Shown here: positions 30,160-64,000 of the stretch, in pieces
Position numbering within the stretch: the stretch's first letter is position 1
How the letters are laid out: the number at the start of each line of letters is the position of its first letter
Source: Obrimoposthia wandeli
Lineage: Eukaryota
NCBI GenBank assembly: GCA_977020255.1
Contig: CDROCS010000772.1
Coordinates: forward strand, 806,001-870,000
DNA length: 64,000 nt
Direction: 5' to 3'
Notes under the pieces: model-generated
Told to the model about the DNA's origin: nothing
Database searches by the model: none
Seen by the model: the letters and a program-made list of their open reading frames with translations, nothing else
Made by a program: the position numbers and the translations under genes

Positions 30160-30384
30160 TTCAGCTTTACTCGTTGGAATGGCTTGTACAATGGTTTCTG
30201 TCTTTGACTTGAGATTTCTGATTCCAGCTTTATTCTCTCTTTACAAACCTGGTTGATTAATATGTTTTTCGTCGAAACGCCATTAGTTGCACGAACATCC
30301 AATGAAAAATGAGAAACGTATCAATTGAAAGTGTTGGTTGAATATGCTTAAAGTGAACTAAATCAATACATCCATTTTCATCTC

Positions 30385-40966: not shown

Positions 40967-42150
40967 TTAACAATTAGGTACAATTTTAATTGCAACATAT
41001 TCTCTCCTTGATTGAACCTTAATCAACAATACAATAAGGAGCATGTCACAAAATATTACTACTTGAACAGAGAAAACAAATCCACATAGAACAACAACAC
41101 CAAAAAGAAAACCCTCTCTCTCTAATACTCGACATAAATTTCTTATAGACTTCGTCTTCTCTTTCCCCTGCTCCATCAATCTGACTACCCGTACCAATCC
41201 ATCTTGTCCCTCCATCAATTTCAGTATTCTCGCTAGAGGCCATTTTCTTTGCTCATTTTTCTTTTCCAATACCAGTACAAAATCATCTACTTTCAATGGT
41301 TCCCGCGTTTCCCACCATTTTTGTCTAACTGCTTACATTGGCAATATCTCATCCATCCACCTTTTCCATAATTGTTCCATCAAACCTTGTAACAACTTCC
41401 ACCGATGTTTCACATTATTCGTGGTCAAGTCGCAATTCACCGTACCTCCAGGTATCAATAAACTATTGGGCGTCAATGAAATAATTTCTTTATTATCTTG
41501 ACTCACATAACTTCATTCCACGATCTCGCTATAATTTGTGCTAGATTGATCCCTTCACATGCATCCATTAATTCCAATTTCGGAATACTCACTGTTTTCA
41601 ACGGTGTTACTTTCGATTTCGCTGTTATTAACACAATTTTTACTTTCCTTTTTTTCCTTATCCTTAGATAACGGACCCACGAATCCTAAAGGATCAAATA
41701 CTGTGGACAAAATACTTAAGAATTCTCGCTTACTAATATTGATCCCATAATTTACTTTAGTTTTAAAAATGAAATAATCTTCTTGAGGATCCCATTGAAT
41801 ACCTAATGTCTTGACTTGACGTTCTTCATCTTTGATTCGTAATACCTTTGCTTGGTCCGATAATGGAATCTGCTTCTTAATTTCCTCACTACTCGTTATC
41901 CATTTTTTGGCTTCCATTTTCGCTCCTCGCCATATTTCTTTCACTTCTAACATTCACTAGATCCTCTGTATCTACTGAGCACAAAGTATCATCCATATAA
42001 GTATTCTCCAAGATTAATCTCGCACTATCTGTATACTTCTCTTGATATCTTCCTGCGTTTCCCTTGATACCATCTGTGCCAAAAATGGCAATGCAATTAA
42101 CCCGAACACTATCCGTTCGTATTCATAGGTCACTATAGTAGGTGGATGTG
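40967..42150 (-). pseudogene. BEL/Pao LTR retrotransposon remnant (RT, peptidase A17/RNase H-like region, integrase C-terminus)
   Basis: TYEYERIVFG and YMDD (RT); KTLGIQWDP and SILSTVFDPLG (Pao-type); LWKRWMDE...VDDFVLVLE...WPLARI...DGLVRVV (DUF5641-like). Internally deleted. Confidence 0.9.
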
Positions 42151-42211
42151 TGTCTTTCGGAACAAAGACATTTGAGCCCCCCCCCCCCGAGGGATTTTTT
42201 TTTTCCCACGG

Positions 42212-42690
42212 TGATGAGTCATCGAACAAAGACCATGAGTCATCGATGAGTCATCGATGAGTCATCGAACAAAGACCATGAGTCATCGATGAGTCATCGA
42301 ACAAAGACCATGAGTCATCGAACAAAGACCATGAGTCATCGAACAAAGACCATGAGTCATCGAACAAAGACCATGAGTCATCGATGAGTCATCGAACAAA
42401 GACCATGAGTCATCGATGAGTCATCGAACAAAGACCATGAGTCATCGAACAAAGACCATGAGTCATCGAACAAAGACCATGAGTCATCGAACAAAGACCA
42501 TGAGTCATCGAACAAAGACCATGAGTCATCGATGAGTCATCGAACAAAGACCATGAGTCATCGATGAGTCATCGAACAATGACCATGTGTCTTTCGGAAC
42601 AAAGACCATGAGTCATCGAACAATGACCATGTGTCTTTCGGAACAAAGACCATGAGTCATCGAACAAAGACCATGAGTCATCGATGAGTA
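42212..42690 (+). repeat. Tandem array of 21-bp and 11-bp units with about 24 TGAGTCA motifs
   Basis: Units GAGTCATCGAACAAAGACCAT and GAGTCATCGAT in irregular order; counted by eye. Confidence 0.95.
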
Positions 42691-42728
42691 ATGTCTTTTG
42701 TCATGCGACCGTGGGAACTTTCCCATGA

Positions 42729-42886
42729 GCGCAGGAACTTTCCCACGGTCTTGAGAATTTTCCCACGCTCAAGTCCTTTGTTCTAATAATTTTCTCAAGA
42801 TCTACTATAGTAGACATGTACTTTGCAGCTCAACCATAGATGCTATTGACAAGCGGTCTTCACCAAATGATACATAAGAGTTCGGA
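42729..42886 (+). repeat. Left terminal inverted repeat (matches 54,629-54,790)
   Basis: Reverse complement of the right-end segment with few differences. Confidence 0.9.
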
Positions 42887-44312
42887 TCAAATTAGTGAAT
42901 ATTAATTACAAGGGAATGGTTGTAAGTAACATTCAACACTTACCATTTCGGACTTCGAAGCCTCATCAGTATCGACTCAAGTGTGAAGGTTACACTATTA
43001 TCATTTTCAAATCTGGTAATTTATATTTACATTTATATATAATTCTAATTTAGGTACATGCAGAATAATGGGTTGCAAAACAGTGCTGGATGAAAGCAGT
43101 CTTCCTTTTGATATAAAAATCGAAAGAATCCAATCAATCAGTCTCAGCAGAAATCTAGAAACATCGATAAACCTAAACAAGATGAGCAAGAGTATGGGAT
43201 CAGAAGCTGTTTACGAGCCAGAAATCTTCCCGGGACTTCGATACGTCAAATACAATCCCCTATGCGTGAACATTTTTGCTAGCGGGAAGATTATGATACT
43301 CGGTGTTAAATCTTTAAACTATGAGTATCTGATTGAATGTATTTTGTTTAATATAGATCTTCACACTTGTGTTATTTATTTCCTAAACCAAATAGTTTTA
43401 AAAATAGATTTCTCTTAGAGACAAAGACATCACATGTCATTACTTGCAAATAGTTGCAAATAGTTGTAATGTGGTCTAAAAATAGATTGTTCATGGGTTA
43501 TAAACAATATTTGATTTGCTTTATCATAAAATGGATGAAATTATTGAATGTAAAGAGGTTCAGGATGCATTAAAAGATCTTGCTTCAGTTATTCTCAATG
43601 CTTTAATTAGGAAAAATAATCATGAGTAATATTTATATGTAGTTTATTTAACTCTTTAGGTTACGTCATCAACTACATTTACATGAGATGTTAAATACAA
43701 TGGAAAGGTTGAATAATACTCCAATCAAATCATATGATGAAACTGATGCTCCAATGAAATCAAACCTTGTTTAATATATAAGACTAAATTGACTCGGAAT
43801 TGATAAAATGGAGAAAATCGATTCAGCACCAGAAGCAACATCATCATCAGTAACATCATCACCACCAGCAACAACAACAACAGTTATAAGAAGAGAAGAA
43901 ACTATTGATGAAGTGACGATAGAAGAAGAAATTATTATAGATCCAATTATTGAAGATAAGAGACGGATAGATTTTTAAATGCTTTGGCTTTTATGGAACC
44001 CATAATAGCTCATGCTTCGAGTATGGAAATGAACCACATGACCCATCTTTTTGATAGTTTGTTTAGTGCTAGATTTACTCAACTTAATGTAGAAAAGTTA
44101 AACAAAACCGCGATGAGTGAGATTTTAGTAAATCAATTATATATTGGTAATTATAGAGATGGGTTTGATGAAACTAATCTTTTGAATTCCAATTTCACTC
44201 ATGTAATCAATACATATATACTGGATAAAATATCTTATAAGAAATTAAAATATACTTCTGTCTTTGTAAACTCAAAATTAGGAGAAACAATAATGAAGTA
44301 TTATAAACAGAC
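42886..44312 (+). repeat. 1.43-kb inverted duplicate of 50,329-51,756 (5'-truncated TBP-like gene, 69-aa gene, 3'-truncated phosphatase-like gene)
   Basis: I saw only about three differences; lengths are 1,427 vs 1,428 bp. Confidence 0.95.
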
Positions 44313-44317
44313 ATTTT

Positions 44318-44716
44318 TTATAGCAATAATTTTATTTGATATTGTTTATGCTTTAACCAAAGCAGACAGAGTTGTCCACATGACTGTGTTAAAACATTTT
44401 GATAATGTTTCTTACTAAAATGTACTTTCTTTCCAGAATCAAGTACTGTAGATACTAATTTAGAAGGGTAATATATCCCAAAGGGATCAAAAACAAAGAT
44501 TTCATTTTCTTTAACATGTATTGCAATCCAATGTTCACCACGCAAATTAGATGAATGTGTATTGATTACATATCCACCTAGTCGAGTCAAAGAGGGGATG
44601 TGATCAAGGCTGTAGACTCCATTGAAACGCGAACCGAGTAGTTTTCTTCCGCTTTTTGTTATCTCGTCCGAACTAGAATATATATTAATTAATAAATTCA
44701 AACTGACTTACTTCAT
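44318..44716 (-). CDS. Adenain-like cysteine (maturation) protease; 39-nt intron at 44673-44711
   Basis: GEHW, FDPFG and Q...SCGQLC catalytic motifs. ATGAA|GTAAGT...TTCTAG|TTCGGAC gives MNSDEI... in frame. Confidence 0.9.
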
Positions 44717-44751: not shown

Positions 44752-45981
44752 TTATACTAGTACTGTTCCTCCCTTGGTAATTTGAACCTCAGAATCGAAT
44801 ACTCCATAGATTATAATATTAGTAGGATGTTCAAGTGCTTTTGAAAACTTGATTTCTACTTTCAAATTTCCCTGTTTAGGTATTTGAGCTTGATTAATAT
44901 CGAAATCAGGAGAGAGAACAAATGTGAACAGTGTATACTTGTCCTTGAAATCAGTCATTGAAATTCCAATATTAGCATCCTTATCCAAATGACCAAGATT
45001 TCTAATTAAAGATTGCACATAAGAAAACACATAATCATCGTTTTCAAAGTCATTCGTATAAGATTCTTGATAATCAATATTTCGTGCAAGTTTAATTGAA
45101 CTCACATTCATGTGTCCAAATTGAGAAACCTCATTTTTAGACTCACCTCCATAGGTAGAAGTGTTTTGGAAAGCAATTAAAACAAAGTTTGGAAGTTGCA
45201 TATCACCAAAAATCTGATCCTTGTAATAAGATAGTGCTCCTGTAGGGATAGCGTGAGAAACAAGATTAGTTTTTCTAATAGGATAACATGCATTTTGCTT
45301 CTCCAACCCCATTCGATGTGCAACAAGTACAGATGGTTCCACCTTTACTCTTCGAACCAGCAGTTTTGCTTCCGTAATCTCAATTGCGGTTTTAATAGTA
45401 TCAGCGCAAACAACACTAAAACCTACTGGATTTCTCTTCATCCGAATATGTGCACTTACACCGGGTAAAAGATACTTTGGTTGCTTAAAGAAATCCAAAT
45501 GGAGACTCCCACAAAGTGACAATACTTTAGACTTTGCAATCGAAGCAATTCTTCTTTTTTCATCATTGTCAAACCCAATTGCATCAAGATTAATCAATTT
45601 CGTATCATTACCGTAATTCAACAATGTTTCAATCATTGCTTTATGAGTGTAGCTAGTATTATTTCCCTCAACTTTCACATTATTGAGACTGAGAATCACA
45701 TCCTTGAAAAGAGTATGCAACATGTAATTAGCTGATTTGATATCCATACCATCATCCAAATCACCTCCACCTTCCTTTGTAACTTTCAATTTAACGAGAA
45801 ATAAACTATCATTCAAATCAAGATATTGAGTATTGGATCCATTAATATTGAATTCTAAATCCGGAGAAGATGTCCCGTTAACCGTATTTGTCGGAAATAT
45901 TTCTTCAAAACTAGCACTATCAACCACAACCTGAGGTATAGGTTTATCGAATATACACAATTCAGTTTTAGCACAACTCAT
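44752..45981 (-). CDS. Major capsid protein (double jelly-roll, Polinton PY-type)
   Basis: 409 aa; N-terminal KTELCIFDKP.PQ...FEEIFP and LEFNI...YLDLNDS motifs typical of Polinton MCPs; position next to the protease. Confidence 0.85.
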   Translation of the reverse strand: MSCAKTELCIFDKPIPQVVVDSASFEEIFPTNTVNGTSSPDLEFNINGSNTQYLDLNDSLFLVKLKVTKEGGGDLDDGMDIKSANYMLHTLFKDVILSLNNVKVEGNNTSYTHKAMIETLLNYGNDTKLINLDAIGFDNDEKRRIASIAKSKVLSLCGSLHLDFFKQPKYLLPGVSAHIRMKRNPVGFSVVCADTIKTAIEITEAKLLVRRVKVEPSVLVAHRMGLEKQNACYPIRKTNLVSHAIPTGALSYYKDQIFGDMQLPNFVLIAFQNTSTYGGESKNEVSQFGHMNVSSIKLARNIDYQESYTNDFENDDYVFSYVQSLIRNLGHLDKDANIGISMTDFKDKYTLFTFVLSPDFDINQAQIPKQGNLKVEIKFSKALEHPTNIIIYGVFDSEVQITKGGTVLV

Positions 45982-46343
45982 TACTTAAAAATTGTTCCAC
46001 CTAGTTTCAAACGTTTGTTTATACCCGATACTTTAGATGTTTTCTTACGTTTATAACCACTTCCCTTTTGAGTTTTCTTTTTCAAAAATTCAGCTAGACT
46101 TGGTGAAATTTCATTCACCTGATCCAAGGCTGCTTCCTTTAGTGTGGGAAGAAATTTCTCATCACTTGACAAGTATTTTGATCCAACATTAGCAATAAAT
46201 TTCCCGAGTCGCTTGAGTAGTGGGAAAGCAAAGCGACCAAAAACCTTCATCCATCCTGATCCATACTGTTTTCCGGCAAAATAAGGCAAATCACCTCCTT
46301 GCATCGGTTTACTATATGCATCGATTATACTTGAATCAATCAT
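45981..46343 (-). CDS. Small basic virion/core-type protein
   Basis: Q.GG and QYGSGW...FGRFAFPLLKRLGK amphipathic motif common in Polinton small ORFs; TAATG coupling to MCP. Confidence 0.65.
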   Translation of the reverse strand: MIDSSIIDAYSKPMQGGDLPYFAGKQYGSGWMKVFGRFAFPLLKRLGKFIANVGSKYLSSDEKFLPTLKEAALDQVNEISPSLAEFLKKKTQKGSGYKRKKTSKVSGINKRLKLGGTIFK

Positions 46344-47387
46344 AATTTACGAAAATGAACCGTTAAACTTGTTTTAGCTCCGTAAGCAAATGTAATTAAT
46401 CTTCCAGAATCATTACGTATATTAACTTCAATATTGTTTATAGAAGAAGAACTCACGGGAATATACATTGGATTTTCAATTGGAATATGTATAACATCAC
46501 CATACTTGTGCTTTTCCTGTTGAACCCAAATTGCTTTAATTAGGTGAAGTTTCCTTCCTCCTACGAATATTGGTTCGGTAATACTCGTGTAGATATAAAT
46601 CTGATTATATGCATTAGTCATTTTAGGAATAATCTTTGCTTTGAAAACCTCATTTTTATTTTCAAATTCATTTTCATCAAAACCGATAATTGAGGCTAAT
46701 GATTTATCCATGATGATTTTATCAATATTGGATTTCAATTTGAAATGAATCAATTTATTAACTAGTTTAAAGTTTTCAAATACATTTGGTAACACTGTTT
46801 TAAAATGTTTACACATACTTTTGCTATCGGCAAAAAAGAAAATCATTGGGAACTGAATATATTTTCCTCTCGCGTTTAACGAATCTATTTTTTATCTTGA
46901 ATGTAATTATCGGATACTTGACATGATTATCCATAATTTTTGAAACTGCATGCTTACCTTTTTCAACGTTAGGCGGAAATCCATATTGTTCTGCAACAAT
47001 TTCATCATTAAAAACTATTTCAAAATTATCCCCTTTTCCCATAATTTGAATTCGATTCTCTTTATTTAAAAAGATTGTGAAATCATCGCCCGCCTTAATA
47101 CGAGCCAAATCCATTTGACCCTTATCAAATAGTAAAGTCACATCAGTTACTTTATCAACTTCACGTTGGGTAATATATTCAATCTCAGTTTCACTTTGAA
47201 TAGATAGAGGAGAGTAATTGAAAGAAAATTCCGTAAGAGCAGCTTCCCAACCACCAGGTAAATTGATTGAGCTTTGATAATCAATACTAAAACTATTAGC
47301 AGTATTATTCGGTTGAGTTAATGGCGAACCATTACTTGGTAATACAACATACATTGAGTTCATTCTATTTGAGAAGCTAATATCCAA
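46340..47387 (-). CDS. Minor capsid (penton-like, PX-type) protein split by a single-base frameshift
   Basis: N-terminal YVVLPSN...NTANSF...WEAALTEF; C-terminal IYIYTSI.EP.FVG...PMYIPV...IEVNIRNDSG...LHFRK-type end. The frames overlap at 46824-46846 in a T run. Confidence 0.8.
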
Positions 47388-48388
47388 CTAGGTTCAGTAT
47401 ATCCATGCCACTTAACATGATATTGTTTATGCTTTCCTCTACCTTTTGTCTCTAAAATTTCTTGGATTCTATATACATTCGGTTTCTCAGGCAAGACTTG
47501 TAATTCCTCATGATAAAATTTACCCGTGATTACCTTATTGGTTTCATCCTCAATGAAATACATTACCGGCATACGTTTATTATCAATTTTAGTTATACGA
47601 AATACTTCATCACTCCAATTCTCTTTGAAATTCTTTATAAAAGGAGTAGTACTAATTTGAGAAATACGTACATAATCACCAACTTTATACTTGGGTTTCC
47701 GCGCAACTTGACTTTGGTTACGGCGTTGCCAAATTGCCATAGCATTCTCATCTGTAACATCAACGGGTCTCTTTCGGTCTAATGATGAGTGTTCACTATG
47801 ATTGTATGCATGTATTATTTGAGGTAAAACAGTAACCCAGGACTTATTTCCCTGCTTTGTGAAATACTTTTTCAAACGATCTCTCAATGTTCGATTAAAA
47901 CGTTCAACTAAAGCGGCTTTATATTGGGAAAATACTGAGTAATGATTAATATTATGTTTTTTCAATAGTGTTTCAACATGTTTATTATAAAACTCCTTTC
48001 CACTATCCGTTTGGAAATTTCTTGGTTTTATTTCTTTAATCAAAAGCTTCATTGCGGTTAAAACATCGGTACCAGACTTAGACTTTAATGGAATAGCTCG
48101 CGCGAATCTGCTAAAGACATCAACACAAGTTAAAATATATCGATATCCGTTGTTAATACTCGCATACGGAATCATTTCCATCAAATCTGCTTGCCATAAA
48201 TCATTCGGGCCGCTCGTTTTGTATGATCTCGTTGGGAACCGACGTCTCATTGGTTTGTTTAAGCTGTAAGCTAATTGATTTCTCAACCACGCCTGAGTTT
48301 CCTGCTTTGTCTTCTTTGTCTCTTTTGCTAATTTTGAAACCCCTGTGTAACCAACGGGATGACTTGGATCGAACCATATTTTCTCCAT
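47360..48388 (-). CDS. Retroviral-type (rve) integrase with C-terminal chromodomain
   Basis: WQADL, FQTDSGKEF and VERFNRTL (DDE); YRIQEIL...YHVKWHGY...SW chromodomain. Confidence 0.95.
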   Translation of the reverse strand: MEKIWFDPSHPVGYTGVSKLAKETKKTKQETQAWLRNQLAYSLNKPMRRRFPTRSYKTSGPNDLWQADLMEMIPYASINNGYRYILTCVDVFSRFARAIPLKSKSGTDVLTAMKLLIKEIKPRNFQTDSGKEFYNKHVETLLKKHNINHYSVFSQYKAALVERFNRTLRDRLKKYFTKQGNKSWVTVLPQIIHAYNHSEHSSLDRKRPVDVTDENAMAIWQRRNQSQVARKPKYKVGDYVRISQISTTPFIKNFKENWSDEVFRITKIDNKRMPVMYFIEDETNKVITGKFYHEELQVLPEKPNVYRIQEILETKGRGKHKQYHVKWHGYTEPSWILASQIE

Positions 48389-48485: not shown

Positions 48486-48908
48486 TCATCGGTTAATTAG
48501 TCTACTAGCAAGTGCACCAACTATTGAGCTAATAATTGGTACGAGAAATCCTAAAAATCCACCACTTTGCTTATAAAGCAACTTACGTTTACCGATTCGT
48601 GTTTTGGCATGAAACAAAGCAAGTAGAGGTTTCTTATGCCGATTCAGGTTAGCCTTGACAATTATTTTACCAGAAACTATTTTCTGTATCATATTAAGTA
48701 AATCATCAATTACAAAAGTAGGGAATGATTTAAGAATAGCTGGGCGGCGAACAGCAGGTGCACGCATGAGAGAATTGAAATAGGCAGTACTCCTAGATTT
48801 CCTAACAACAGTTCTTTTCGATTTTTGAGCAACCATTTTCCTTGCACTTAAAACTGATTTAATCAATTTTTTAACTTCGGGTTTAACAGTTTCCTTTTTA
48901 AAATTCAT
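48486..48908 (-). CDS. Basic Polinton virion protein with GGFL motif and hydrophobic C-terminus
   Basis: KRKLLYKQSGGFLGFLVPIISSIVG, a motif widely seen in Polinton small proteins and a possible protease site; ATGA overlap with the ATPase. Confidence 0.7.
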   Translation of the reverse strand: MNFKKETVKPEVKKLIKSVLSARKMVAQKSKRTVVRKSRSTAYFNSLMRAPAVRRPAILKSFPTFVIDDLLNMIQKIVSGKIIVKANLNRHKKPLLALFHAKTRIGKRKLLYKQSGGFLGFLVPIISSIVGALASRLINR

Positions 48909-49555
48909 CTTCTCAAAACTGGTTTCTTTGTTTGTTTATAGATGGTTATTCCCGATGGATTGAATACATCAGTTCTAACTCTAAAGTCATCGGGACAATC
49001 TTGAGTAAAATCAATAAAAATGTATCCATGAGGAATAGTAGTTGCATCTTGAAATGAATCAATTAAAAACTTTCTATTATTCGGGTAAGCTTGTCTTGAA
49101 ACAAAATCAACAACCGTCTGATCACGTGGATTCTTGAAGAGAACAAGGTAATGTACATTTAAATTACGAGTTCTATGGTTCCCTCCTTGATGAAATAGAT
49201 TTTGTGTGATGAAAATAACAGTTACTTCCCGATGTCGTGCTATTTTAGTGAATAAATTATTGAAATCACTCTCTTTATTTGCTTCTTGATATAAATCATC
49301 AATAACAATAACATCATGTCGTTGTAATCGCTCAGACCAATTATCATCGAATCCATTAATGACTTTTATATTTTTGATTTTCTTAAACTCTTTACTGGTT
49401 AAACCAGCTTCTCCATCTCCTCCCTGATGCCAGTATATTTTATTAAACTTAAAACTAAAGTATTTATTATTTTGCAGTAATTTACATACAAAATGTGTTT
49501 TCCCACTACCACTAGGACCTACAATCTGAAAAACTGAATTATTTTTTAAGTTCAT
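48905..49555 (-). CDS. A32/FtsK-like DNA packaging ATPase
   Basis: Walker A GPSGSGKT, Walker B VIVIDD, ARHREVTVIFITQN and FKNPRD. Confidence 0.95.
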   Translation of the reverse strand: MNLKNNSVFQIVGPSGSGKTHFVCKLLQNNKYFSFKFNKIYWHQGGDGEAGLTSKEFKKIKNIKVINGFDDNWSERLQRHDVIVIDDLYQEANKESDFNNLFTKIARHREVTVIFITQNLFHQGGNHRTRNLNVHYLVLFKNPRDQTVVDFVSRQAYPNNRKFLIDSFQDATTIPHGYIFIDFTQDCPDDFRVRTDVFNPSGITIYKQTKKPVLRR

Positions 49556-49598
49556 ATTAAAAATATTAGATTATCGGGATAATGTTTATAAGACAAAA

Positions 49599-49880
49599 CT
49601 ATTTAAAATATTTTATTACTAAACATCCAGCAACAAACAATAAAAAACTCTTCTCGTAGAAAAAGCTACTTTTCTCTTCTTTGTTTGCGAGTTTCTTCTG
49701 ATTGTATCCCTGAATGAGAAGATTGACTGCCTTGTCATGCACCATTCTTCTTACGTGCTCCTCCAGGGGTAGATTTGAGACATCAATGAGTTGCAGGACA
49801 TCTGGTTCTATGACATTCTTCGAGATGAAGCTCTTCACCGCCTTGTCAACATCTTGCTTGAAATAGTTTGGAGTAGACAT
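49599..49880 (-). CDS. 93-aa tail-anchored hypothetical protein
   Basis: C-terminal FLLFVAGCLVIKYFK; TATATAAG upstream at 49928-49935. Confidence 0.6.
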   Translation of the reverse strand: MSTPNYFKQDVDKAVKSFISKNVIEPDVLQLIDVSNLPLEEHVRRMVHDKAVNLLIQGYNQKKLANKEEKSSFFYEKSFLLFVAGCLVIKYFK

Positions 49881-49959
49881 AATGATGATGAAGAAGTAAA
49901 AAAAAAAAAAAAAAAAAAAGTAATCTGCTTATATACTATATACCTGAAATCTGATTGGT

Positions 49960-50100
49960 TAATAAATACACTGACTAATAAAGACACTAAAGACACTGAC
50001 TAATAAAGACACTAAAGACACTGACTAATAAAGATACTGATTAATAAAAACACTGATTAATAAAAACACTGATTAATAAAAACACTGATTAAAGATAAAG
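49960..50100. repeat. Short tandem repeats (25-bp and 16-bp units) in an intergenic spacer
   Basis: ACACTGACTAATAAAGACACTAAAG x2-3, then ACACTGATTAATAAAA x3-4. Confidence 0.8.
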
Positions 50101-50111
50101 ACGAATAAAAT

Positions 50112-50834
50112 TTACACATGATAACGATTAAAAATACGTATTTGATGAAGCATAGCTTCATTAGGAGCAGCAATAGTCCGTTTAGCTTTAACAAGATTCG
50201 AAGCAGCAGTAACACCAATCGAATGAGATAAAAATGCAATAACAATGCAAGCAGCATGTAAACTACCATAATGACCACATACTAAAATCTTACCACCATT
50301 TTCGATAGTTTCTTTAATTATATTATTAGTCTGTTTATAATACTTCATTATTGTTTCTCCTAATTTTGAGTTTACAAAGACAGAAGTATATTTTAATTTC
50401 TTATAAGATATTTTATCCAGTATAGATGTATTGATTACATGAGTGAAATTGGAATTCAAAAGATTAGTTTCATCAAACCCATCTCTATAATTACCAATAT
50501 ATAATTGATTTACTAAAATCTCACTCATCGCGGTTTTGTTTAACTTTTCTACATTAAGTTGAGTAAATCTAGCACTAAACAAACTATCAAAAAGATGGGT
50601 CATGTGGTTCATTTCCATACTCGAAGCATGAGCTATTATGGGTTCCATAAAAGCCAAAGCATTTAAAAAATCTATCCGTCTCTTATCTTCAATAATTGGA
50701 TCTATAATAATTTCTTCTTCTATCGTCACTTCATCAATAGTTTCTTCTCTTCTTATAACTGTTGTTGTTGTTGCTGGTGGTGATGATGTTACTGATGATG
50801 ATGTTGCTTCTGGTGCTGAATCGATTTTCTCCAT
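50112..50834 (-). CDS. Dual-specificity phosphatase-fold protein, predicted inactive
   Basis: SEIL..QLYIGN, FTHVIN and GGKILV...GS...A.IVIAFL; the HCX5R loop reads CGHYGSLH. Confidence 0.85.
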   Translation of the reverse strand: MEKIDSAPEATSSSVTSSPPATTTTVIRREETIDEVTIEEEIIIDPIIEDKRRIDFLNALAFMEPIIAHASSMEMNHMTHLFDSLFSARFTQLNVEKLNKTAMSEILVNQLYIGNYRDGFDETNLLNSNFTHVINTSILDKISYKKLKYTSVFVNSKLGETIMKYYKQTNNIIKETIENGGKILVCGHYGSLHAACIVIAFLSHSIGVTAASNLVKAKRTIAAPNEAMLHQIRIFNRYHV

Positions 50835-50867
50835 TTTATCAATTCCGAGTCAATTTAGTCTTATATA

Positions 50868-51111
50868 TTAAACAAGGTTTGATTTCATTGGAGCATCAGT
50901 TTCATCATATGATTTGATTGGAGTATTATTCAACCTTTCCATTGTATTTAACATCTCATGTAAATGTAGTTGATGACGTAACCTAAAGAGTTAAATAAAC
51001 TACATATAAATATTACTCATGATTATTTTTCCTAATTAAAGCATTGAGAATAACTGAAGCAAGATCTTTTAATGCATCCTGAACCTCTTTACATTCAATA
51101 ATTTCATCCAT
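50868..51111 (-). CDS. 69-aa hypothetical protein; 34-nt intron at 50983-51016
   Basis: CATGA|GTAAT...CTTTAG|GTTACG joins MDEIIECKE...NNHE|LRHQLHLHEM...NLV* in frame; TATAAA upstream. Confidence 0.6.
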
Positions 51112-51223
51112 TTTATGATAAAGCAAATCAAATATTGTTTATAACCCATGAACAATCTATTTTTAGACCACATTACAACTATTTGCAACTATTTGCAAGT
51201 AATGACATGTGATGTCTTTGTCT

Positions 51224-51771
51224 CTAAGAGAAATCTATTTTTAAAACTATTTGGTTTAGGAAATAAATAACACAAGTGTGAAGATCTATATTAAACAAAA
51301 TACATTCAATCAGATACTCATAGTTTAAAGATTTAACACCGAGTATCATAATCTTCCCGCTAGCAAAAATGTTCACGCATAGGGGATTGTATTTGACGTA
51401 TCGAAGTCCCGGGAAGATTTCTGGCTCGTAAACAGCTTCTGATCCCATACTCTTGCTCATCTTGTTTAGGTTTATCGATGTTTCTAGATTGCTGCTGAGA
51501 CTGATTGATTGGATTCTTTCGATTTTTATATCAAAAGGAAGACTGCTTTCATCCAGCACTGTTTTGCAACCCATTATTCTGCATGTACCTAAATTAGAAT
51601 TATATATAAATGTAAATATAAATTACCAGATTTGAAAATGATAATAGTGTAACCTTCACACTTGAGTCGATACTGATGAGGCTTCGAAGTCCGAAATGGT
51701 AAGTGTTGAATGTTACTTACAACCATTCCCTTGTAATTAATATTCACTAATTTGATATTATGAAGTAGCAT
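51224..51771 (-). CDS. TATA-binding-protein-like protein (169 aa); 38-nt intron at 51589-51626
   Basis: The spliced product has both TBP repeat signatures: TIIIFKSG|TCRIMGCK and YEPEIFPGLRY...VNIFASGKIMILGVKS. The intron has GT, CTAAT and AG. Confidence 0.85.
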
Positions 51772-51834
51772 TTCTGATTATTATAAACTGATTTCTTCTA
51801 TTTATACAATTTGAACATATATTTTTAGATTTGC

Positions 51835-52835
51835 TTAATTGCCTATGCTATGAAATCTAATATTTCTTACTCGTCTAATGATAATTGTCTTGCAATATGG
51901 ACATGTAATAAAACGATCTGAACATTTAATACACGTGTTTAAGTGACCGCATGGTAAAAATGCCACGGAAATCGCATCACTCATGCAAACAACACATTCG
52001 GGATTTGGTAAGAGGTACTCGAGATAATTTATCCGATGTTTTGGTTCAGATTTTATTTCTAAAGACCTTAAATCCGTTATAAACTCATATATAGAATCAT
52101 ATTTATTACCGAATGTTTTAAACCTATTAACTAAAACGGCTTTGATTCTATCATGGCTGTAATCACGTTTCAGCAAAACTATTTGACGAGTTTCCATCTG
52201 GGCATCAATTTCATCATTACTAATATGATATTCAACAATACATCCGTTCTTGATTCCCATACTAGATGCTTTACAATCTCGAGTATGAAAGATTCTTTCG
52301 GGCATAGTATCAATAAGGTCAAGTCGGGGTACTGCTTTCCGACAGAAACAACATCGATAAGAATCATTCCAAATATATACATGATCGAAAATCGATAATG
52401 TAGGTATTTCAATATCATTAGAATAATTATTGCGCACAATAACTACTTTATCCATTGGAGTTGTATCAAAATCAATTTGGGTGGTGCTGGAATCAATTAT
52501 TGGTACGTTTGAAACATTCATTTTCAAAACAAACGGGCATCTTGGGAAAAATAGCTGATGTTGCTTCATTGGTTTCAGATAGTACTCCCATCCTGATATT
52601 CCTCCTGACAGTAAATACACTTTACATTATCTTTCGAATCATCGTGCTTGTAAAATCCTGCTTTTGCTAAAGCTTTCTTATGGGCTAAACCAGTAAACTT
52701 TGCTTGTAACGATTCTAATCTTCTTTCTTCATATATCATATTTTCATTTATTCTTGAAATATTATCAAAACGCCGTCGTCTAATGGTGAGTTCTCCGTTT
52801 TCTGAAACATAATGTGCAATAAATTTAGTAGTCAT
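51835..52835 (-). CDS. Inhibitor-of-apoptosis protein (BIR, degenerate BIR, RING-HC) split by one frameshift
   Basis: EERRLES...LAKAGFY...DNVKCIYC / GGISGWE...H...FPRCPFV; second CCFC...H...C; C-terminal CVVC...FLPCGH..TC..C....CPYC. Confidence 0.9.
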
Positions 52836-52880
52836 AACAAAATTGAATGATGAAATTGTCTAGCTTATATAGTAAGTGAA

Positions 52881-52922
52881 AATCTATTTTTAGACCACAT
52901 TACAACTATTTGCAACTATTTG
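52881..52922. promoter_or_regulatory. 42-bp element also present at 51,154-51,195; candidate shared promoter
   Basis: AATCTATTTTTAGACCACATTACAACTATTTGCAACTATTTG, located 43-46 nt upstream of two minus-strand ATGs. Confidence 0.6.
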
Positions 52923-52947
52923 TCTTAGTATAAACAATATTTTGATA

Positions 52948-53628
52948 ATGGATAATCAAAATAATCAAAATAATGAAAGTAGAGCTAGTACATACATAGG
53001 TTCCAGTAGTAATTTATATTCTAATATGAATTATAATAGAAATAATCAGAGAGAAAATATTAATCCATCAAGTCAAACAATAACAAGTCCTACGCGCGTA
53101 ACCGAAGAACGTGAGCCCTTTAAGGATATGACTAATACTAGACGATAAACAAGAATGTTAAGCAATTGAGACTAATCGACCAATTAGAATCGAGCTTTAG
53201 AGGATAAACAATTGAATATTTCAATTTATAATTGTCAATATGAATTTCGAAAAGCTATATCAACCTATGCATACATATTTTGGATATGAGATGCACTTTT
53301 TGAAAAAGCTCATAACTATAATTTTATTTTTCCTATCAACATCGAGCCGCTTAAATTTGATTTTGAAATATCAAATTTGACTTCTGTGGATAAAGAGAGA
53401 ATCAATATTCTCTTGACTCAATTCGGAATCAACTATGCACTTCAGGAAAACAAATTCGTAATCAAAGGATCAACTGCCACTTTCAAGCATGAGAATGGAA
53501 CAATATACGAAGCACCTCCTCCTAAGCTAGAATGGATTATCTCAATCAGAATTCAAGGATGCAAGATCGGGCCCAGTGGATTGGAAACTCCGATATGGAA
53601 AATAATTGATGCTGTTAGAGTTGACTAA
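52948..53628 (+). pseudogene. Frameshifted hypothetical gene, possibly an OB-fold ssDNA-binding protein
   Basis: Several frame breaks; C-terminal WIISIRIQGCKIGPSGLETPIWKII loosely resembles viral SSB C-termini. Confidence 0.3.
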
Positions 53629-53715
53629 TAAATTTTTGTGTCTTTATTTGTATTATTTTATATATATATTATTTATTATTATATTATAAACAATAGTGAT
53701 ACTTTAATATTTATT

Positions 53716-53880
53716 ATGAAAATGACTAAAAAACCTACTAAATCATTAAAGACTAGGGTTAAAAAGACTATGAGTAAAAAGACTATGAGTAAAAAGAAAA
53801 TCATGGAAGGTTTGGGTATTCATATGATGGCAGCAAATCTTTTAGGTAGATGGTTTGGGGAGTTGATAAAAAATCTATAA
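53716..53880 (+). CDS. Small Lys-rich protein with amphipathic C-terminus
   Basis: MKMTKKPTKSLKTRVKKTMSKKTMSKKK...MAANLLGRWFGELIKNL. Confidence 0.45.
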   Translation: MKMTKKPTKSLKTRVKKTMSKKTMSKKKIMEGLGIHMMAANLLGRWFGELIKNL

Positions 53881-54059
53881 AGCACAAAAGAATGTGGATT
53901 ATTTGAGAGGTATACAAAATCAGAAACGAGTGCAAAAAGGAGATGGTATACAAAAAGGGGATGGTATGCTTGATATTTTTGTAAAATTAGATAAACTTAC
54001 AAAAGCATTTGAAAAGGATCTAGTGCCTATCTTGGTCCAAAACTAAACTTTTTAGCAAA

Positions 54060-54630
54060 CCGACCAAAAACTTAAATTTTGAAGAAAATAATTTTTTGAA
54101 AATAAATTTTTGAAGAAAATAAATTTTTTGAAAATAAATTTTTTTTGAAGAAAATAAATTTTTGAAGAAAATAAATTTTTTAACTTTTAGGAAAAAATAA
54201 ATTTTTTGAAGAAAATAATTTTTGAAAGAAAATAAATTTTTGAAAGAAAATAAATTTTTTAACTTTTTAGAAAAATAAATTTTTTGATGAAAATTTTCAG
54301 AGGCAAACAGAAATGTTTTCATGTACAAAAATTTTTTTGCAAAAATGATGTACAAGTGATTTAGAAACTTTAATTTTGGCGCCAAAATTTTTGAAAATTT
54401 AAACAAAATATTTTGAAAAAATAATTTTAACTTTTTGGAAAAAATAAAAAATTTGAAAATTTTGAAGGTTTTTGACCCTTGAAGGTCCTTGGAAGGTCGG
54501 ACCAACCTCGACCAAGTCCATTATCCATAACATCAAAAAGTAGAAAAATAAAAATTTTTGAACCCTTTGAAGGTTTTTGATCCTTGAAAGGTCCAACCCT
54601 CGAAGGTCTGGTCAACCCCAGTCGAAGGTC
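54060..54630. repeat. Subterminal low-complexity repeats
   Basis: Many AAAATAAATTTTTTGAAG-type units (54060-54450), then GAAGGTC/GAAGGTT-type units (54460-54630). Confidence 0.8.
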
Positions 54631-54790
54631 CGAACTCTTATGTATCATTTGGTGAAGACCGCTTGTCAATAGCATCTATGGTTGAGCTGCCAAGTACATG
54701 TCTACTATAGTAGATCTTGAGAAAATTATTAGAACAAAGGACTTGAGCGTGGGAAAATTTTCTTAAGACCGAGTAGGAAAGTTCACTGCG
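54629..54790 (-). repeat. Right terminal inverted repeat, truncated by the foldback
   Basis: Matches 42,729-42,886 until the mirror point. Confidence 0.85.
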
Positions 54791-54794
54791 CCTT

Positions 54795-57700
54795 CTGCTT
54801 GAACTTTCCACGGTCTCTTAACTCCCCCTCAAGATCTATAATGAACATGTTTAATTGATCTTCACTAAATACATAAGTTCGGACCTCTAGTGACAGGCAA
54901 CTCGGGGTAAAAACTCAGGATTCAGAACTTTTTCTGCACTTTTGATGTTATGGACTGGACTTGGTCGAGGTGGCCTTCAGGGCCTTCAGGTCAAGCCTTC
55001 AGAGGCACAAATTTATTTTTCAAAGAGACAAAAGAGTATTTTTTCAAAAATATTTTGTTTATTTCTCAAAATTTGGCATAAGTAAAGGGCTAATCACTTA
55101 TTATCATTTTGCAAAAAAAGAGTACGTACGTAATTGCCTCTGAATTTTCATCAAAATTATTTCAAAGTTGAAATTATTTTCAAAGGTATTCAAGTATTTG
55201 CACTCAAAAATTTTCTAAAGAGACAAAATTGTTTTCTTCAAAACATTTTCTTCAAAAGAAATTGTTACCTGTCAAAGAACATTACTCAAAATTGACCTGT
55301 CAAAGAAACCCGACCTCAAATATTTTTCTTCAAAATTTAGTTTTGATCGGATTTTAAATGCTGTAGTTTATCTGAACACAAAATATCAGCGCCATCACTT
55401 TGGCATACCTAAGATTTAACAAACCTTCCGCCGATTCTGCTCATGGTCTTTGCTGGTCTGTGATTGGTGGGTTTCATGAAGTATCACTTGTGGGTGTAAT
55501 AATAGTAATATGTAAACAATGCAAATCTCAAGAACACAAAAATTGTCAGTCAACTCTAACAGCATCGGTGACGCCGCCAATCCGCTGGGCCCGATCTTCG
55601 TCGCGGAGTCGGTTGGTAATCCCGATGCAGAGAATCATGCTGGTGGCGATGGAACACGAACTGAGCACTGGTCGCCAGTTATTCGAGCCAGTCAGAAGAA
55701 GATATTGATTCTCTTTATCCACAGAGACATCAAGACTGATATTCAAATCAGAGACTAACAGCCTCGTAATTGACTAGAAAAAATGGAAATTATGGTGCTC
55801 TCAAGAGATACATCTCATATCCAAAATGTATGCAGACGATATAACAAAATATATTATTCGAGCCGTTTATCCTCTAAACTCGATTCATTAATCTCAATTA
55901 ACTAACATTCTTGTTTATCGTCTAGTATTAGTCTGTCATAAAGAGCACGCGCGTAGGACTTGTTGTTTGACTTGATGGATTAATATTTTCTCTGATTAAC
56001 TATTATATTCATATTAAATATAAATTACTACTGGAGACTAGCTCTACTTTCATTATTTTGATTATTTTGATTATCCGATATCAAATATTGTTTATACTAA
56101 GACAAATAGTTGCAAATAGTTGTATTGTGGTCTAAAAATTTTTCACTTACTATATATAAGCTGAACAATTTCATCATTCAATTTTGTTATAATACTAATT
56201 GTGCATTATGACTCGAAAACGGAAAACTGCGTTGACGGCGGTGGCTTCAGGAAAATGAAAAAGGTAAATTTGCTAAGCTACTGGTTTAACCTGCTTTAGC
56301 AAAAGCAGAGACTGCACGGTCGAAAAATAATGTAAAAGTGCTAATATCAGAGGATGGGGAAGTACTATCTGAGCCAATGGTGGCTGTTTCCCAAGATGCC
56401 GTTGTTTGAAAATGGTGAAACGGCAATAGTGATCGCGCAAGTGATCCAATGGATAAGCCCCGGTATTAGCGCTGTGTTGTGATATTAATCTGCATTATCG
56501 TTACCGATATATATATTTGGAATGATGCTGTCGTGTTGTCAGCTGTACCCGGCGACTGCTGTGCTATGCCTGATGCCATACTCGAGGTGTAAGCTCTGAG
56601 GAATCAGAAAGTAGTCTTGTGATTGGTATCATATTAGCTAATGATGAAGTGCCAGATAAACTCATATCTGACCCAACCATGATAACCGGCCACAGTGGAG
56701 TTGCGTGACCGACTTCATTCTATATATGGTTAGATTCATCAAAATCTGAACAAGCGCTCGGATAAATCTCGGTACTCTGCAAATGAAATGTGTTGGGCTA
56801 CATAGTGACATTCAGCAGGCTCACTAAACACGTGTATTCATTCAGATCGTTGTATGTCCCATATTACTGGAGCAATTATCATTGGGCAGTAGAAAATATT
56901 AGATTTCATAGGCAATTAAGCAAATCTAAAAATATATGTTCAAATTAACATAAATAGAAAGAAATCGTTTATAATAATCAGAAATGCTACTTCATAATAT
57001 CAAATTAGTGAATATTAATTACAAGGGGAGACTGGTTGTAGTAACATTCAGCACTACCATTCGAACTTCAAGCCTCATCAGCCAATCAAATTTAGTACCG
57101 ACACAAATCTGTTATTATGACTACATTTATATACTAATTCTAATTTAGGCTGCATCTGAAATAATGAGTTATAGCTGATGCTGGATAACAGTCTTCCACG
57201 ATATAAAATCGAAGAATCAATCAATCGATACCAGCGGCAATCTAAAGCATCGACCAAACCTAAACAAGATGAGCAGAGTATCCGGGATCGAAGCTGTTTA
57301 CGGCCAGCGTCGGGACTTCGATGCGTCAAGCAATCCCTAATGCGGCACATTTTTGCTGGCGGGAAAGATATGATACTCGGTGTTAAATCTTTAAGCGTGG
57401 TACTCTGATTGAATATATTTTGTTTAATATAGATCTTCACTGTTTAAAATAGACTACTCTTAGAAATTAAAGGCATCACATCGTATTACTTGCAAAATAG
57501 TTCCAAATGGTAACAATAATGATCTAAAAATAGATTGTTCATGGAGTTATAAGCTAATATTTGTTTACAACATCATAAATGGATGAAGTATTGAATATAA
57601 GAGGTTCAGGATGCGATAGATATCTTTGCTTCAGTGAAAATGCTTTAATTAGAAAATAATCATGAGCATAATATTTATAGTTTATTTGGCACTCTTTGGG

Positions 57701-60700
57701 ATTACGTCATCAACTTCTACATTTTACATGAGATGTTAAATACAATGGAAAGGTTGAATAATACTCCAATCAAAATCATATGATGAAACTGATGCTCCAA
57801 TGAAATCAAACCTTGTTTAATATATAAGACTAAATTGACTCGGAATTGATAAAATGGAGAAAAATCAGTTGTTCAGCACCAGAAACATCATCATCAGTAA
57901 CATCATCTACCAGCAGCAACAGCAACAGTTATAAGAAGAGAAGAAACTGATGAAGTGACGATAGAAGAAGAAATTATTATAGATCAATTATTGAATAAGA
58001 GACGGATAGATTTTTAAATGCTTTGCTTTATGGAACCCATAATAGCTCATGCTTCAGTATGAAATGAACCACATGACCCATCTTTTTGATAGTTTGTTTA
58101 GTGCTAGATTTACTCAACTTAATGTAGAAAAGTTAAACAAAACCGCGATGGGTGAGATTTTAGGAAATCAATTATATATTGGTAATTATAGAGATGGGTT
58201 TGATGAAACTAATCTTTTGAATTCCAATTTCACTCATGTAATCAATACATCTATACTGGATAAAATATCTTATAAGAAATTAAAATATGCTTCTGTCTTT
58301 GTAAACTCAAAATTAGAGACTTAATAATGAAGTATTATAAACAGACTAATAATACTATAATTAAAGCTTATCGAAAATGGTGGTAAGATTTTGGTAATGG
58401 TCATTATGGTAGTTTACATGCTGCTTGCATTGTTATTGCATTTTTATCTCATTCGTTGAATTACTGCTGCTTCGAATCTTGTTAAAGCTAAACGGACTAT
58501 TGCTGCTCTAATGAAGCTATAACTTCATCAAATACCGTATTTTTAATCGTTATCGTATTATATTTTATTCGTCTTTATCTTTAATCAGTGTTTTTATTAA
58601 TCAGTGTTTTATTAATCAATCTTTTGATATTAGTCAGTGTCTTTAGTGTCTTTATTAGTCAGTGTCTTTAGTGTGCTGATAGTCAGTGTATTTATTAACC
58701 AATCAAATTTCAGGTATATAGTATATAAGCAGATTACTTTTTTTTTTACTTCTTCATCATCATTATGTCTCTCCAAACTATTTCAAGCAAGATGTGACAA
58801 GGCGGTGAAAACTTCATCTCGAAAGAATCATAGAACCAGATGTCCTGCAGCTCATTGATGTCTCAAATCTACCCCTGGAGGAGCACGTAAGAAGAATGGT
58901 GCATGACAAGGCAGTCAATCTTCTCATTCAGGGATGCAATCAGAAAAGAAACTCGCAAACAAAAAGAAGAAAAGTAGCTTTTTTCTGCGAGAAGAGTTTT
59001 TATTGTTTGTTACAGATGTTTCGTAATAAAATATTTTAAATAGTTTTGTCTTATAAACATTATCGATAATCTAATATTTTAATATGAACTTAAAAAATAA
59101 TTCAGTTTTTCCAGATTGTAGGTCCTAGTGGTAGTGGGAAAACACATTTTGTATGTAAATTACTGCAAAATAATAAATACTTTAGTTTTAAGTTTAATAC
59201 ATACTGGCATCAGGAGAGAGATGGAGAAGCTGGTTTAACCAGTAAGAGTTTAAGAAAATCAAAAATATAAAGTCATTAATGGATTCGATGATAATTGGTC
59301 ACGAGCGATTACAACGACATGATGTTATTGTTATTGATGATTTATATCCAAGAAGCAAATAAAGTGATTTCAATAATTTATTCACTAAAATAGCACGACA
59401 TCGGGAAGTAACTGTTATTTTCATCACACAAAATCTATTTCATCAAGGGAGGAACCATAGAACTCGTAATTTAAATGTACATTACCTTGTTCTCTTCAAG
59501 AATCACGTGATCAGACGGTTGATGATTTTGTTTCAAGACAAACTTGCGAATAATAGAAAGTTTTTAATTGATTCATTTCAAGATGCAACTACTATTCCTC
59601 ATGGATACATTTTTATTGATTTTACTCAAGATTGTCCCGATGACTTTAGAGTTAGGAGCAGTATTCAATCCATCGGGAATAACCATCCATAAACAAACAA
59701 AGAAACCAGTTTTGAGAAGATGAATTTTTAAAAGGAAACTGTTAAGCCGAAGTTAAAATTGATTAAATCGGTTTTAAGTGCAAGGAAAATGGTTGCCAAA
59801 AATCGAAAAAAGAACTGTTGTTAGGGAAATCTAGGAGTACTGCCTATTTCAATTCTCTCATGCGTGCACCTGCTGTTTCGCCGCCTTTATTCTTAAATCA
59901 TTCCCTACTTTTGTGAGTGATGATTTACTTAATATGATACAGAAAATAGTTTCTGGTAAAATAATTTATCCAAGGCTAACTGAATCGGCATAAGAGAAAC
60001 CTCTACTTGCTTTGTTTCATGCCAAAACACGAATCGGTAAACGTAAGTTTATAAGCAAAGTGGTGGATTTTAGGATTTCTCGTACCAATTATTAGCTCAA
60101 TAGTTGGTGCACTTGCTAGTAGACTGAGTAACCGATGATTAAACATAAATTCAATCAATAATATGAATTTATATATGGGATCACTTCCATCTATTCCTAA
60201 ATTCAATTTAAAATCAAATCGTGCTGCAATGGAGAAAATATGGTTCGTCCAAGTCATCCGGTGGATTTTTAGGGGTTTCAAAATTAACCAAAGAGACAAA
60301 GAAGACAAAGCAGGAAACTCAGGCGTGGTTGAGAAATATATTAACTAGCTTAAACAAACCAGTGAGACGTCGGTTCCCAACGAGATCATACAAAACGAGC
60401 GGCGAATGATTTATGGCAAGCAGATTTGATGGAAATGATTCCGTATGCAGTATTAACAACGGATATCGATATATTTTAACTTGTGTTGATGTCTTTAGCA
60501 GATTCGCGCGAGCTATTCCATTAAAGTCTAAGTCTGGTACCGATACTAACCGCAATGAAGCTTTTGATTAAAGAAATAAAACCAAGAAATTTCAAACGGA
60601 TGATGGAAAGGAGTTTTATAATAAACATGTTGAAACGCTATTGAAAAAACATAATATTAATCATTGCAGTATTTTCCCAATATAAAGCCGCTTTAGTTAG

Positions 60701-63700: not shown

Positions 63701-64000
63701 CCCACTAATATTATAATCTATGGAGTATTCGATTCTGAGGTTCAAATTACCAAGGGAGGAACAGTACTAGTATAAACAGAATGAAAACAATAAAGAAGAT
63801 ATATATATAAATGAAGTAAGTCAGTTTAATTTATTAATTAATATATATTCTAGTTCGGACGAGATAACAAAAGCGGAAAACTATAGTTCGCGTTTCAATG
63901 GAGTCTACAGCCTTGATCACATCCCTCTTTGACTCGACTAGGTGGATATGAAATCAGCTTTGACTATCTAATTTGCGTGGTGAACATTGGATTGCAATAC
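54795..64000 (+). other. Error-rich mirror copy of 44,519-54,790 (probable foldback read artefact)
   Basis: Colinear reverse complement of the Polinton genes, all frameshifted; 9.2 kb versus 10.3 kb for the template. Confidence 0.85.

Follow-up and report, generated by a model that had tools for sequence, protein, structure and literature searches.

Adintoviruses have been reported to carry accessory genes for Bcl2 and IAP, TBP being named in figure legends (Starrett et al., PMC8502044), and SSDBP is likewise a figure label in the Maverick and adintovirus literature (PMC8502044; PMC8097293). Neither 'phosphatase' nor 'intron' is mentioned in the accessible part of the adintovirus account of Starrett et al. 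(PMC8502044). Intact vertebrate elements have terminal inverted repeats (TIRs) of 46–1447 bp and no introns (Barreat and Katzourakis, PMC8097293), and Widen et al. describe an intronless Maverick core with introns in cargo genes. Among butterfly polintons, some have TIRs of 2 kb that bear genes, and some have lost polB yet are active (bioRxiv 10.1101/2025.02.07.637071, Pannagram). In herpesviruses, late genes depend on TATT boxes and a TBP-like protein (PMC4893493). Here we describe a young Maverick/Polinton in a 64,000-nt stretch of DNA (the window; contig CDROCS010000772.1, positions 806,001–870,000) from Obrimoposthia wandeli, whose genome is AT-rich and 1.35 Gb in size. As the original prediction from the sequence had recognized, it is a Polinton; it has an RVE integrase and an A32-like ATPase, and elements that share its ends have a 6-bp target-site duplication (TSD) and AG...CT ends. 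These features, together with a pX-like protein, a protease recognized by motifs and accessory regions, are shared with animal Mavericks and adintoviruses; unlike these, the element lacks PolB and has gene-bearing arms of about 5 kb, core genes with candidate introns, a conserved small TBP-like protein (mini-TBP) and a second promoter class. It belongs to a PolB-less subfamily in which the accessory arm is doubled, and its mini-TBP is probably a late-gene switch that reads the variant box TATAAACA, a reading in which we have moderate confidence.

The accessory block (49599–53880) had been placed between the ATPase gene and the right TIR, but from 50329 onwards it is part of the TIR arm itself. 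A genome search found 40 near-identical places, many of them inverted pairs 8 kb apart that begin exactly at window position 50329. Six copies fetched whole each comprise two arms of about 4.5 kb plus 0.6 kb of terminal repeats, with a 6-kb core between, and arm-to-arm identity is 99.0–99.6% in three of four copies and 96.6% in the other. The right arm of the window copy spans 50329–54791 (4.46 kb to the inner TIR segment; about 5 kb with terminal repeats in other copies). Its boundary at 50329 cuts through a gene for a protein of dual-specificity phosphatase (DSP) fold, and the genes for IAP, TBP and a single-stranded DNA-binding (SSB)-fold protein, with part of the DSP gene, lie within the TIR and are thus doubled. 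On the left, a forward-strand arm remnant at 42886–44312, with the TBP-like gene and the 5′ part of the DSP gene, is an inverted copy of 50329–51756 (99.8% identity); the outer 2.9 kb or so of this arm is absent from the window copy.

PolB is absent from the window element and its subfamily. All five full copies checked at both ends have two arms, no PolB and a 6-bp TSD, and measure 15.4–16.7 kb. The parent families have PolB and a single arm. In the older family A2 (15.4–15.9 kb, 91–97% identity, TIRs under about 1 kb) the block is present once, and PolB and an exonuclease-like open reading frame (ORF) follow the protease gene. A younger complete form, F (16.1–16.3 kb), has the window element's own termini, with TIRs of 650–720 bp, and is 99.1–99.2% identical to the window element over the TBP–IAP region. 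Since these parents with the same block have PolB, the window's subfamily appears to be a non-autonomous derivative. At its junction (44303–44322) the inverted arm stands in place of the parent's PolB/exonuclease end, at a point where the exonuclease start and the DSP gene have 10 nt of microhomology; this exact junction occurs at 36 places in the genome and the parent-type sequence at 803. We infer that in a single template switch the PolB end was overwritten with a copy of the accessory end, with length kept, and that PolB is supplied to the subfamily in trans. A 21-kb end pair considered as an autonomous parent was rejected, being a rearranged PolB-less copy without a TSD. In butterfly polintons, too, genes are doubled in the TIRs and polB has been lost from forms that still spread, but in the accessible part of that account the TIRs hold hexon and adenain genes and polB loss accompanies transposable-element cargo; in the present element it is the accessory arm that has taken the place of the PolB end, and there are PolB-only and near-empty counterparts with the same termini. 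Three of the six copies fetched adjoin or lie inside other Mavericks, and nesting is common in the wider family set as well, perhaps through a target preference, perhaps only through high density.

The terminal 24-mer of the element occurs 363 times in the genome, for about 180 end-sharing elements in all; the outermost 15 nt of the element's end are also found in families C and E. An assignment of all 363 end motifs to PolB-less copies was rejected: complete, PolB-only and near-empty forms share these ends, mostly at lengths of 14.5–16.7 kb. The first 100 occurrences gave 32 end pairs, 17 of them 14.9–16.3 kb long, five 13.7–14.5 kb, nine shorter and one longer. Target-site duplications of 6 bp, with AG...CT ends, are present in 25 of the 29 pairs examined, which comprise two complete elements, nine PolB-less (five full, two deleted, one rearranged and one recognized by its junction only), seven PolB-only, nine near-empty, one hybrid and one unread. 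The PolB-only elements (14.5–15.6 kb, TIRs of about 5 kb) carry PolB, the exonuclease and an ATPase fragment, and no integrase, capsid or protease matches were found in the seven. The near-empty palindromes are 6.4–16.2 kb long, and six of the nine carry a TBP gene, 72–79% alike or weaker. Exact matches to marker sequences number at least 22 for the complete form, at least 36 for PolB-less, at least 34 for PolB-only and at least 36 for near-empty elements. All seven PolB-only and all nine near-empty elements have a TSD and no integrase match, so that integration in trans is as near shown for these 16 as sequence allows. Many unpaired end motifs lie 3–13 kb from contig starts, and palindromic elements seem to break the assembly.

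It is somewhat probable that the PolB-less, PolB-only and near-empty forms are simply independent parasites of the complete elements, their length resulting from end-copying or chance rather than from packaging or mutual help; this concerns the architecture only. The PolB-only and near-empty forms do stem from another parent (PolB 82% identical to that of the complete form, TBP 72–79%), and shorter forms with a TSD occur, at 6.4–8.7 kb. Less easily explained in this way are the near-unit length of three separately derived forms, the lack of any element above 16.7 kb among the 25 with a TSD, and the complementary genes and similar marker counts (36 and 34) of the PolB-less and PolB-only forms. 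A more speculative and, in our estimate, doubtful alternative is an invertebrate Polinton clade with an early/late programme, the smallest known TBP acting on its own TATAAACA box and intron gating in protease, polymerase and TBP, which is splitting into complementary, capsid-sized palindromic genomes (capsid, integrase, TBP and IAP; polymerase only; TBP only): a multipartite DNA virus forming in the germline. Shared ends and complementary genes, as expected of a multipartite virus, are found here. Telling against it, and against the preferred reading as well, are the complete elements with the same ends (22 marker matches), whose presence makes mutual dependence of the defective forms unnecessary, and the nine of 32 end pairs below 13.7 kb. 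Defective or copy-back genomes of linear DNA viruses, and poxvirus terminal duplication–deletion mutants, similarly have one end replaced by the inverted other and depend on a helper; here, such forms have become fixed in a germline, where they make up integrated families flanked by target duplications. That defective forms of unit length integrate although they lack their own integrase is evidence, at the level of sequence, of action in trans, and it possibly points to a limit on the size that can be packaged.

The mini-TBP gene of the window (51224–51771, reverse strand; TBP match at 51224–51622, E 7.5e-13) is in two parts separated by a candidate 38-nt intron (51589–51626), with a canonical TATAAATA box 35 nt upstream. 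The two frames with a 38-nt GT–AG interval between them recur in 12 of 12 loci (the window and 11 others), and PolB-bearing families encode an uninterrupted mini-TBP of 150–154 aa. Conservation of mini-TBP and of the neighbouring SSB-fold gene extends to five Maverick families in the genome and to metagenomic Mavericks. Searches gave 16 close relatives and 52 clusters at E < 1e-30; among 28 metagenome loci with a mini-TBP, the SSB gene is present in 17, the ATPase in eight and a row of Maverick genes in three. One metagenome Maverick with mini-TBP and SSB genes (L073:222-719) also has two penton-like genes and an ORF that by eye resembles a ubiquitin-conjugating E2. At least 14 database mini-TBPs (P0043, P0045, P0049 and others) have their first Met immediately after the site of the candidate intron, the truncation to be expected of a gene caller faced with an intron there.

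A structural model of an intronless relative (mean predicted local distance difference test, pLDDT, 93) has helices in the C-lobe only: the N-lobe is shortened, with no helix in residues 1–75. The top 44 Foldseek matches, all the significant ones, are TBPs. As modelled, then, this is a reduced TBP-like protein that keeps the saddle and not two complete two-helix repeats. Three intercalating Phe residues are invariant in 10 of 10 mini-TBPs, the first Phe being present in three, and the stirrup Glu pair that contacts TFIIB is kept in nine and 10 of 10. The groove contacts are changed, Asn to Ser and Thr to Leu or Met, the N-lobe alignment being unsure. In a tree of the second repeat (88 columns; cellular rows labelled by eye; host TBP1, whose second repeat is split, excluded), the 34 mini-TBPs group together in a single clade (100/97), separate from the 13 cellular sequences. 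The mini-TBP dN/dS is 0.12; this and the other ratios given here are pooled pairwise values against A2 copies, with decay included. The host has two TBP genes head to head, as well as TLF-like and other TBP-like genes, and about 140 of the 150 TBP matches listed in its genome are Maverick mini-TBP genes.

Two classes of promoter box are found upstream of the genes. The three TATATAAG boxes predicted at 49928, 50860 and 52864 are present, all in sense orientation, and precede the start codons of the 93-aa ORF, the DSP gene and the IAP gene by 48, 26 and 29 nt, respectively. With position disregarded, 1.7% of 2000 Markov resamplings of the block gave at least three such boxes (mean 0.54). A survey of 60 nt upstream of gene starts in five families and three metagenome elements found ATAAAC, the top 6-mer by unbiased count, on the sense strand of 41 of 72 windows and on the antisense strand of one (shuffle mean 4.1, maximum 13). 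The motif, mostly as the variant box TATAAACA, lies 29–53 nt before the ATG of the ATPase (8/8), pX (8/8), capsid (7/8) and exonuclease (4/4) genes, and also precedes three of six SSB and one of two IAP genes. It precedes none of seven TBP genes, five of which have a canonical box. The window element has 10 TATAAACA boxes, every one of them on the coding strand. With its C at position 7, the box departs from the TATA consensus, TATA(T/A)A(A/T)(A/G) (PMC2396422). The variant differs in the 3′ half of the box, and the N-lobe of TBP, which contacts that half, is the lobe remodelled in mini-TBP. A 43-nt direct repeat (51152–51195 and 52881–52922) lies ahead of two TATAAACA promoters, and low-depth contigs join near these repeats, skipping TBP and IAP.

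The two box classes, the mini-TBP and the herpesvirus precedent lead us to prefer the late-switch reading, in which TATAAACA is likely to be a late promoter read by mini-TBP, 'late' being deduced from gene type. Early genes with canonical boxes (mini-TBP, IAP, DSP and the 93-aa ORF) would be transcribed by host TBP and RNA polymerase II (Pol II), and their transcripts spliced by the host. Mini-TBP, which would retain the saddle, three of four intercalating Phe and the Glu pair while lacking the N-lobe helices and the Asn/Thr groove contacts, would then recruit host TFIIB and Pol II to the TATAAACA promoters. Meanwhile, IAP could keep the cell alive, the dead phosphatase could bind phosphoproteins without turnover, and the SSB protein could coat displaced strands. 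A template switch at the 10-nt microhomology would have given rise to the subfamily, which would be copied by PolB in trans from relatives with the same termini and could in turn supply them with integrase and capsid. The accessible description of the herpesvirus BcRF1/ORF24/UL87 system resembles this scheme in its viral TBP-like protein, canonical early boxes, variant box at capsid genes and use of host Pol II. It differs in that here the protein is a free TBP of about 150 aa, clearly like cellular TBP, with no six-protein complex seen; the herpesvirus box varies at position 4 and TATAAACA at position 7, and the viruses are unrelated; the likeness proposed is one of working, seen at the level of sequence. 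It is more likely that mini-TBP serves the element's own late transcription than that it attacks host transcription.

A rather unlikely but not negligible alternative is that TATAAACA is read by host factors, either a forkhead protein or host TBP at low affinity, and that mini-TBP has another role, for example as a competitor for TFIIB that dampens host transcription, or as a protein that binds the termini of the element. ATAAACA presumably also fits a forkhead site, and a protein that keeps the Glu pair and has altered groove residues would suit a decoy. Near-empty elements that retain only the TBP gene indicate that it is valuable, without revealing the reason. The narrow position of the box (29–53 nt), its strict strand and its absence before TBP genes give it the look of a core promoter, however, and three intercalating Phe are invariant in 10 of 10 mini-TBPs. 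Several considerations weigh against the late-switch reading itself, beside the forkhead likeness. The replaced Asn and Thr could mean weak or no DNA binding; the box is sparse before the integrase (2/6), penton (3/8), protease (3/8) and 120-aa (2/6) starts; the motif was first seen by eye, the null was a mononucleotide shuffle and the eight elements are related; and the survey covered Mavericks that bear mini-TBP. Splicing, start sites and timing are deduced from sequence alone, and a virus-like life is read from gene content. The gene set does fit the virus-like lifestyle that had been proposed. In scans of viral contigs, the TBPs that turned up were all distant and unaccompanied by Maverick genes, and neither a capsid nor an ATPase of Maverick type was detected. 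No paper found in the accessible literature deals with a late box together with a TBP in a Polinton, with introns in core genes or with complementary forms that share ends; subscription papers, Repbase notes and preprint supplements may hold such cases.

If mini-TBP does read TATAAACA, a defined viral TBP and a defined variant box would make late transcription testable with one small protein and one 8-mer, and a TBP without N-lobe helices would be a natural deletion mutant for the minimum needs of Pol II initiation. The system also bears on whether animal Polintons make particles and on how their genes are timed.

The original prediction regarded IAP, the TBP-like protein and the DSP-fold protein as one host-manipulation module. 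All three genes are present, with matches to the BIR/RING, TBP and DSPc profiles, as are the small membrane and basic proteins that it listed (respectively a 93-aa ORF whose C-terminus is hydrophobic and an ORF that starts at 53716). The inventory overlooked the 129-aa SSB-fold gene, the giant TIR, the loss of PolB and the candidate introns. The folds were correctly named; the IAP, SSB-like and 120-aa basic genes are frameshifted in the window copy. Co-inheritance as a module now seems improbable: the TBP-like gene occurs in all families examined, IAP in two lineages and DSP in one. In the A/A2 lineage the three genes are indeed adjacent and co-oriented, with canonical boxes and purifying selection, and TBP, SSB and a DSP with its active site occur together in one metagenome locus. 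Family B, however, has TBP and IAP in another order (its IAP, 42% identical, lies after TBP) and no DSP, and families C, D and E have neither IAP nor DSP near TBP. The proposed co-occurrence survey, here of 28 metagenome loci, many of them short, found TBP-like genes throughout, IAP in none and DSP in one. IAP and DSP are variable cargo, while mini-TBP and the SSB-fold gene are conserved. Of the combination, which the original prediction did not know from a Polinton, IAP has already been published in adintoviruses, and TBP appears as a label in a figure legend on related elements. The possibility that had been named as fatal to the prediction, recent neutral capture, finds little support, as dN/dS is 0.12–0.39 for the three genes (IAP 0.35, DSP 0.39), like the 0.24–0.35 of core genes, and mini-TBP forms its own clade. 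Neutral capture, or giant TIRs as assembly fold-backs, is hardly credible: the assembly does hold fold-backs (window 54929–64000) and scattered frameshifts are seen in many copies, but one exact junction recurs at 36 places, TSDs have unique flanks, the arms are 99% alike, dN/dS is far below 1 and mini-TBP lies outside cellular TBPs.

The IAP gene (51835–52835, reverse strand; BIR match 52575–52859, 1.8e-6; RING match 51835–52626, 8e-12) encodes one CCHC-type BIR and a C-terminal RING. A single 333-aa frame, with a C-x2-C-x16-H-x6-C BIR in the copy read, is present in seven of the 11 other loci; the window copy is frameshifted within the BIR. Many BIR proteins do not block apoptosis. The DSP gene (50112–50834, reverse strand; DSPc E 4.8e-13) encodes 240 aa with a Ser/Thr-rich N-terminus. 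Its loop reads VCGHYGSLHA in place of HCxxGxxR: the signature His-Cys and Arg are replaced, and one Cys remains, one residue early. Judged by its sequence, this is a pseudophosphatase and not an active dual-specificity enzyme; 150 of the 150 genome matches listed are identical over 162 aa. The metagenome relative beside TBP and SSB keeps an active loop. STYX-type pseudophosphatases and atypical DSPs (DUSP19, DUSP22, STYX) share the fold, and STYX has Gly at the catalytic Cys position, as here; the element's protein, unlike these, also lacks the signature His and Arg and is encoded by a mobile element. Protein searches, of limited sensitivity, found no DSP or IAP relatives among 498 and 694 candidates.

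The SSB-fold gene (53240–53628, forward strand) encodes 129 aa in other copies. Its model (pLDDT 92) matches the T7 gp2.5, Enc34 SSB and African swine fever virus (ASFV) CP312R fold with Z 7.2–7.8, under the caution level of 8, at a root mean square deviation of 2.6–4.0 over 102–124 residues. The four best of 48,161 chains belong to this one family, the next having Z 5.4, and there is also likeness to giant-virus proteins. It is thus predicted to be a ssDNA-binding protein, here of about 110–130 aa and 5–10% identical to these relatives. The basic ORF from 53716 (to 54068, forward strand; ORF reading) has two QKGDG motifs and encodes 120 aa in eight of 12 loci and 54 aa in the frameshifted window copy. 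The motifs presumably resemble those of core proteins, with a role in cleavage, and the product may be a core protein cut by a protease. Replication and the particle are the more likely functions of the SSB-fold gene and, probably, of this basic protein. Pfam gave no match for the 93-, 66- or 120-aa ORFs or the SSB family. The SSB dN/dS is 0.40; those of the 93- and 120-aa ORFs are 0.57 and 0.79, and that of the 66-aa ORF, 0.83, indicates weak constraint.

Candidate introns are not confined to accessory genes. In TBP, a GT–AG interval of 38–40 nt interrupts one and the same Gly codon in families A, B and C and in the near-empty form; its sequence differs among them, and D and E lack it. In the protease gene, ATG-AA is followed by GT(A/G)A...AG, about 35–41 nt, in A, A2, B, C, D and E and in two of three metagenome elements. 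The PolB gene has an interval of about 110–150 nt in F, the PolB-only form and A2, absent in B–E, and one of the host's TBP genes contains an intron of similar style, 47 nt long. These conserved GT–AG intervals in protease and PolB genes argue, as candidates, against intronless core genes and, if true introns, would explain why protease and PolB frames are scored as broken. Four sequencing runs cover genes and spacers alike, with no candidate-intron joint among the matches listed, and are uninformative on splicing.

The element is inserted in a Pao/BEL retrotransposon remnant (41000–42136, weak match). Its left terminus (42137–42886, forward strand) has an AGTAG end, a C-run, 21/11-nt tandem repeats and the inner TIR segment. 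The palindrome GATGAGTCATC underlies the tandem repeats (42203–42692), with kindred repeats in other families' ends, and contains TGAGTCA, which we take to be AP-1-like. The core genes are on the reverse strand: an adenain-type protease (44345–44716; candidate 39-nt intron 44673–44711 after codon 2), assigned by motifs and not by family scan; the likely major capsid protein (44752–45981, 409 aa), with TATAAACA at 46016–46023; a 120-aa basic ORF with QxGxG motifs and the likely penton (45981–47363; ORF reading), the latter 340 aa in other copies and frameshifted here; the RVE integrase with a chromodomain-like end (47360–48388; rve 3.3e-14); a pX-like basic protein (48486–48908; Adeno_PX 0.006, below cut-off), with TATAAACA at 48933–48940; and the A32-like packaging ATPase (48905–49555; Pox_A32 3.9e-6), with TATAAACA at 49583–49590. 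The capsid and penton ORFs gave zero Pfam matches and are named by size, order and conservation. The 93-aa ORF (49599–49880, reverse strand) has a hydrophobic C-terminal tail and no family match. Upstream of the DSP gene is a small two-part ORF (50868–51126, reverse strand; candidate 34-nt intron 50983–51016; TATAAACA at 51136–51143), confined to the A/A2 lineage among the families examined, and beyond IAP a 66-aa Asn-rich ORF (52948–53148, forward strand), with TATAAACA at 52929–52936. The window copy's own right end is lost, and in its place a mirror image of the element runs from 54929 to the contig end at 64000. Its identity of 68–93%, with gap letters and mismatches at about 2:1, makes it likely to be a long-read sequencing fold-back outside the element proper.

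Elsewhere in the window, the fragments at 31674–32876 and 36009–36092, between 243-bp inverted repeats at 31308 and 39312, belong to a decayed PolB (about 34% to family D) and to a penton-like gene and represent a distant Maverick remnant. The remnant has one other long match in the genome, and its PolB has no good copy. An inverted repeat (161–7985 and 22808–30188), 98.6% identical over 5.8 kb with a 14.8-kb spacer, may be a real element or an assembly fold-back. It carries a RING ORF (3124–3654) and a 436-aa ORF without a family match.

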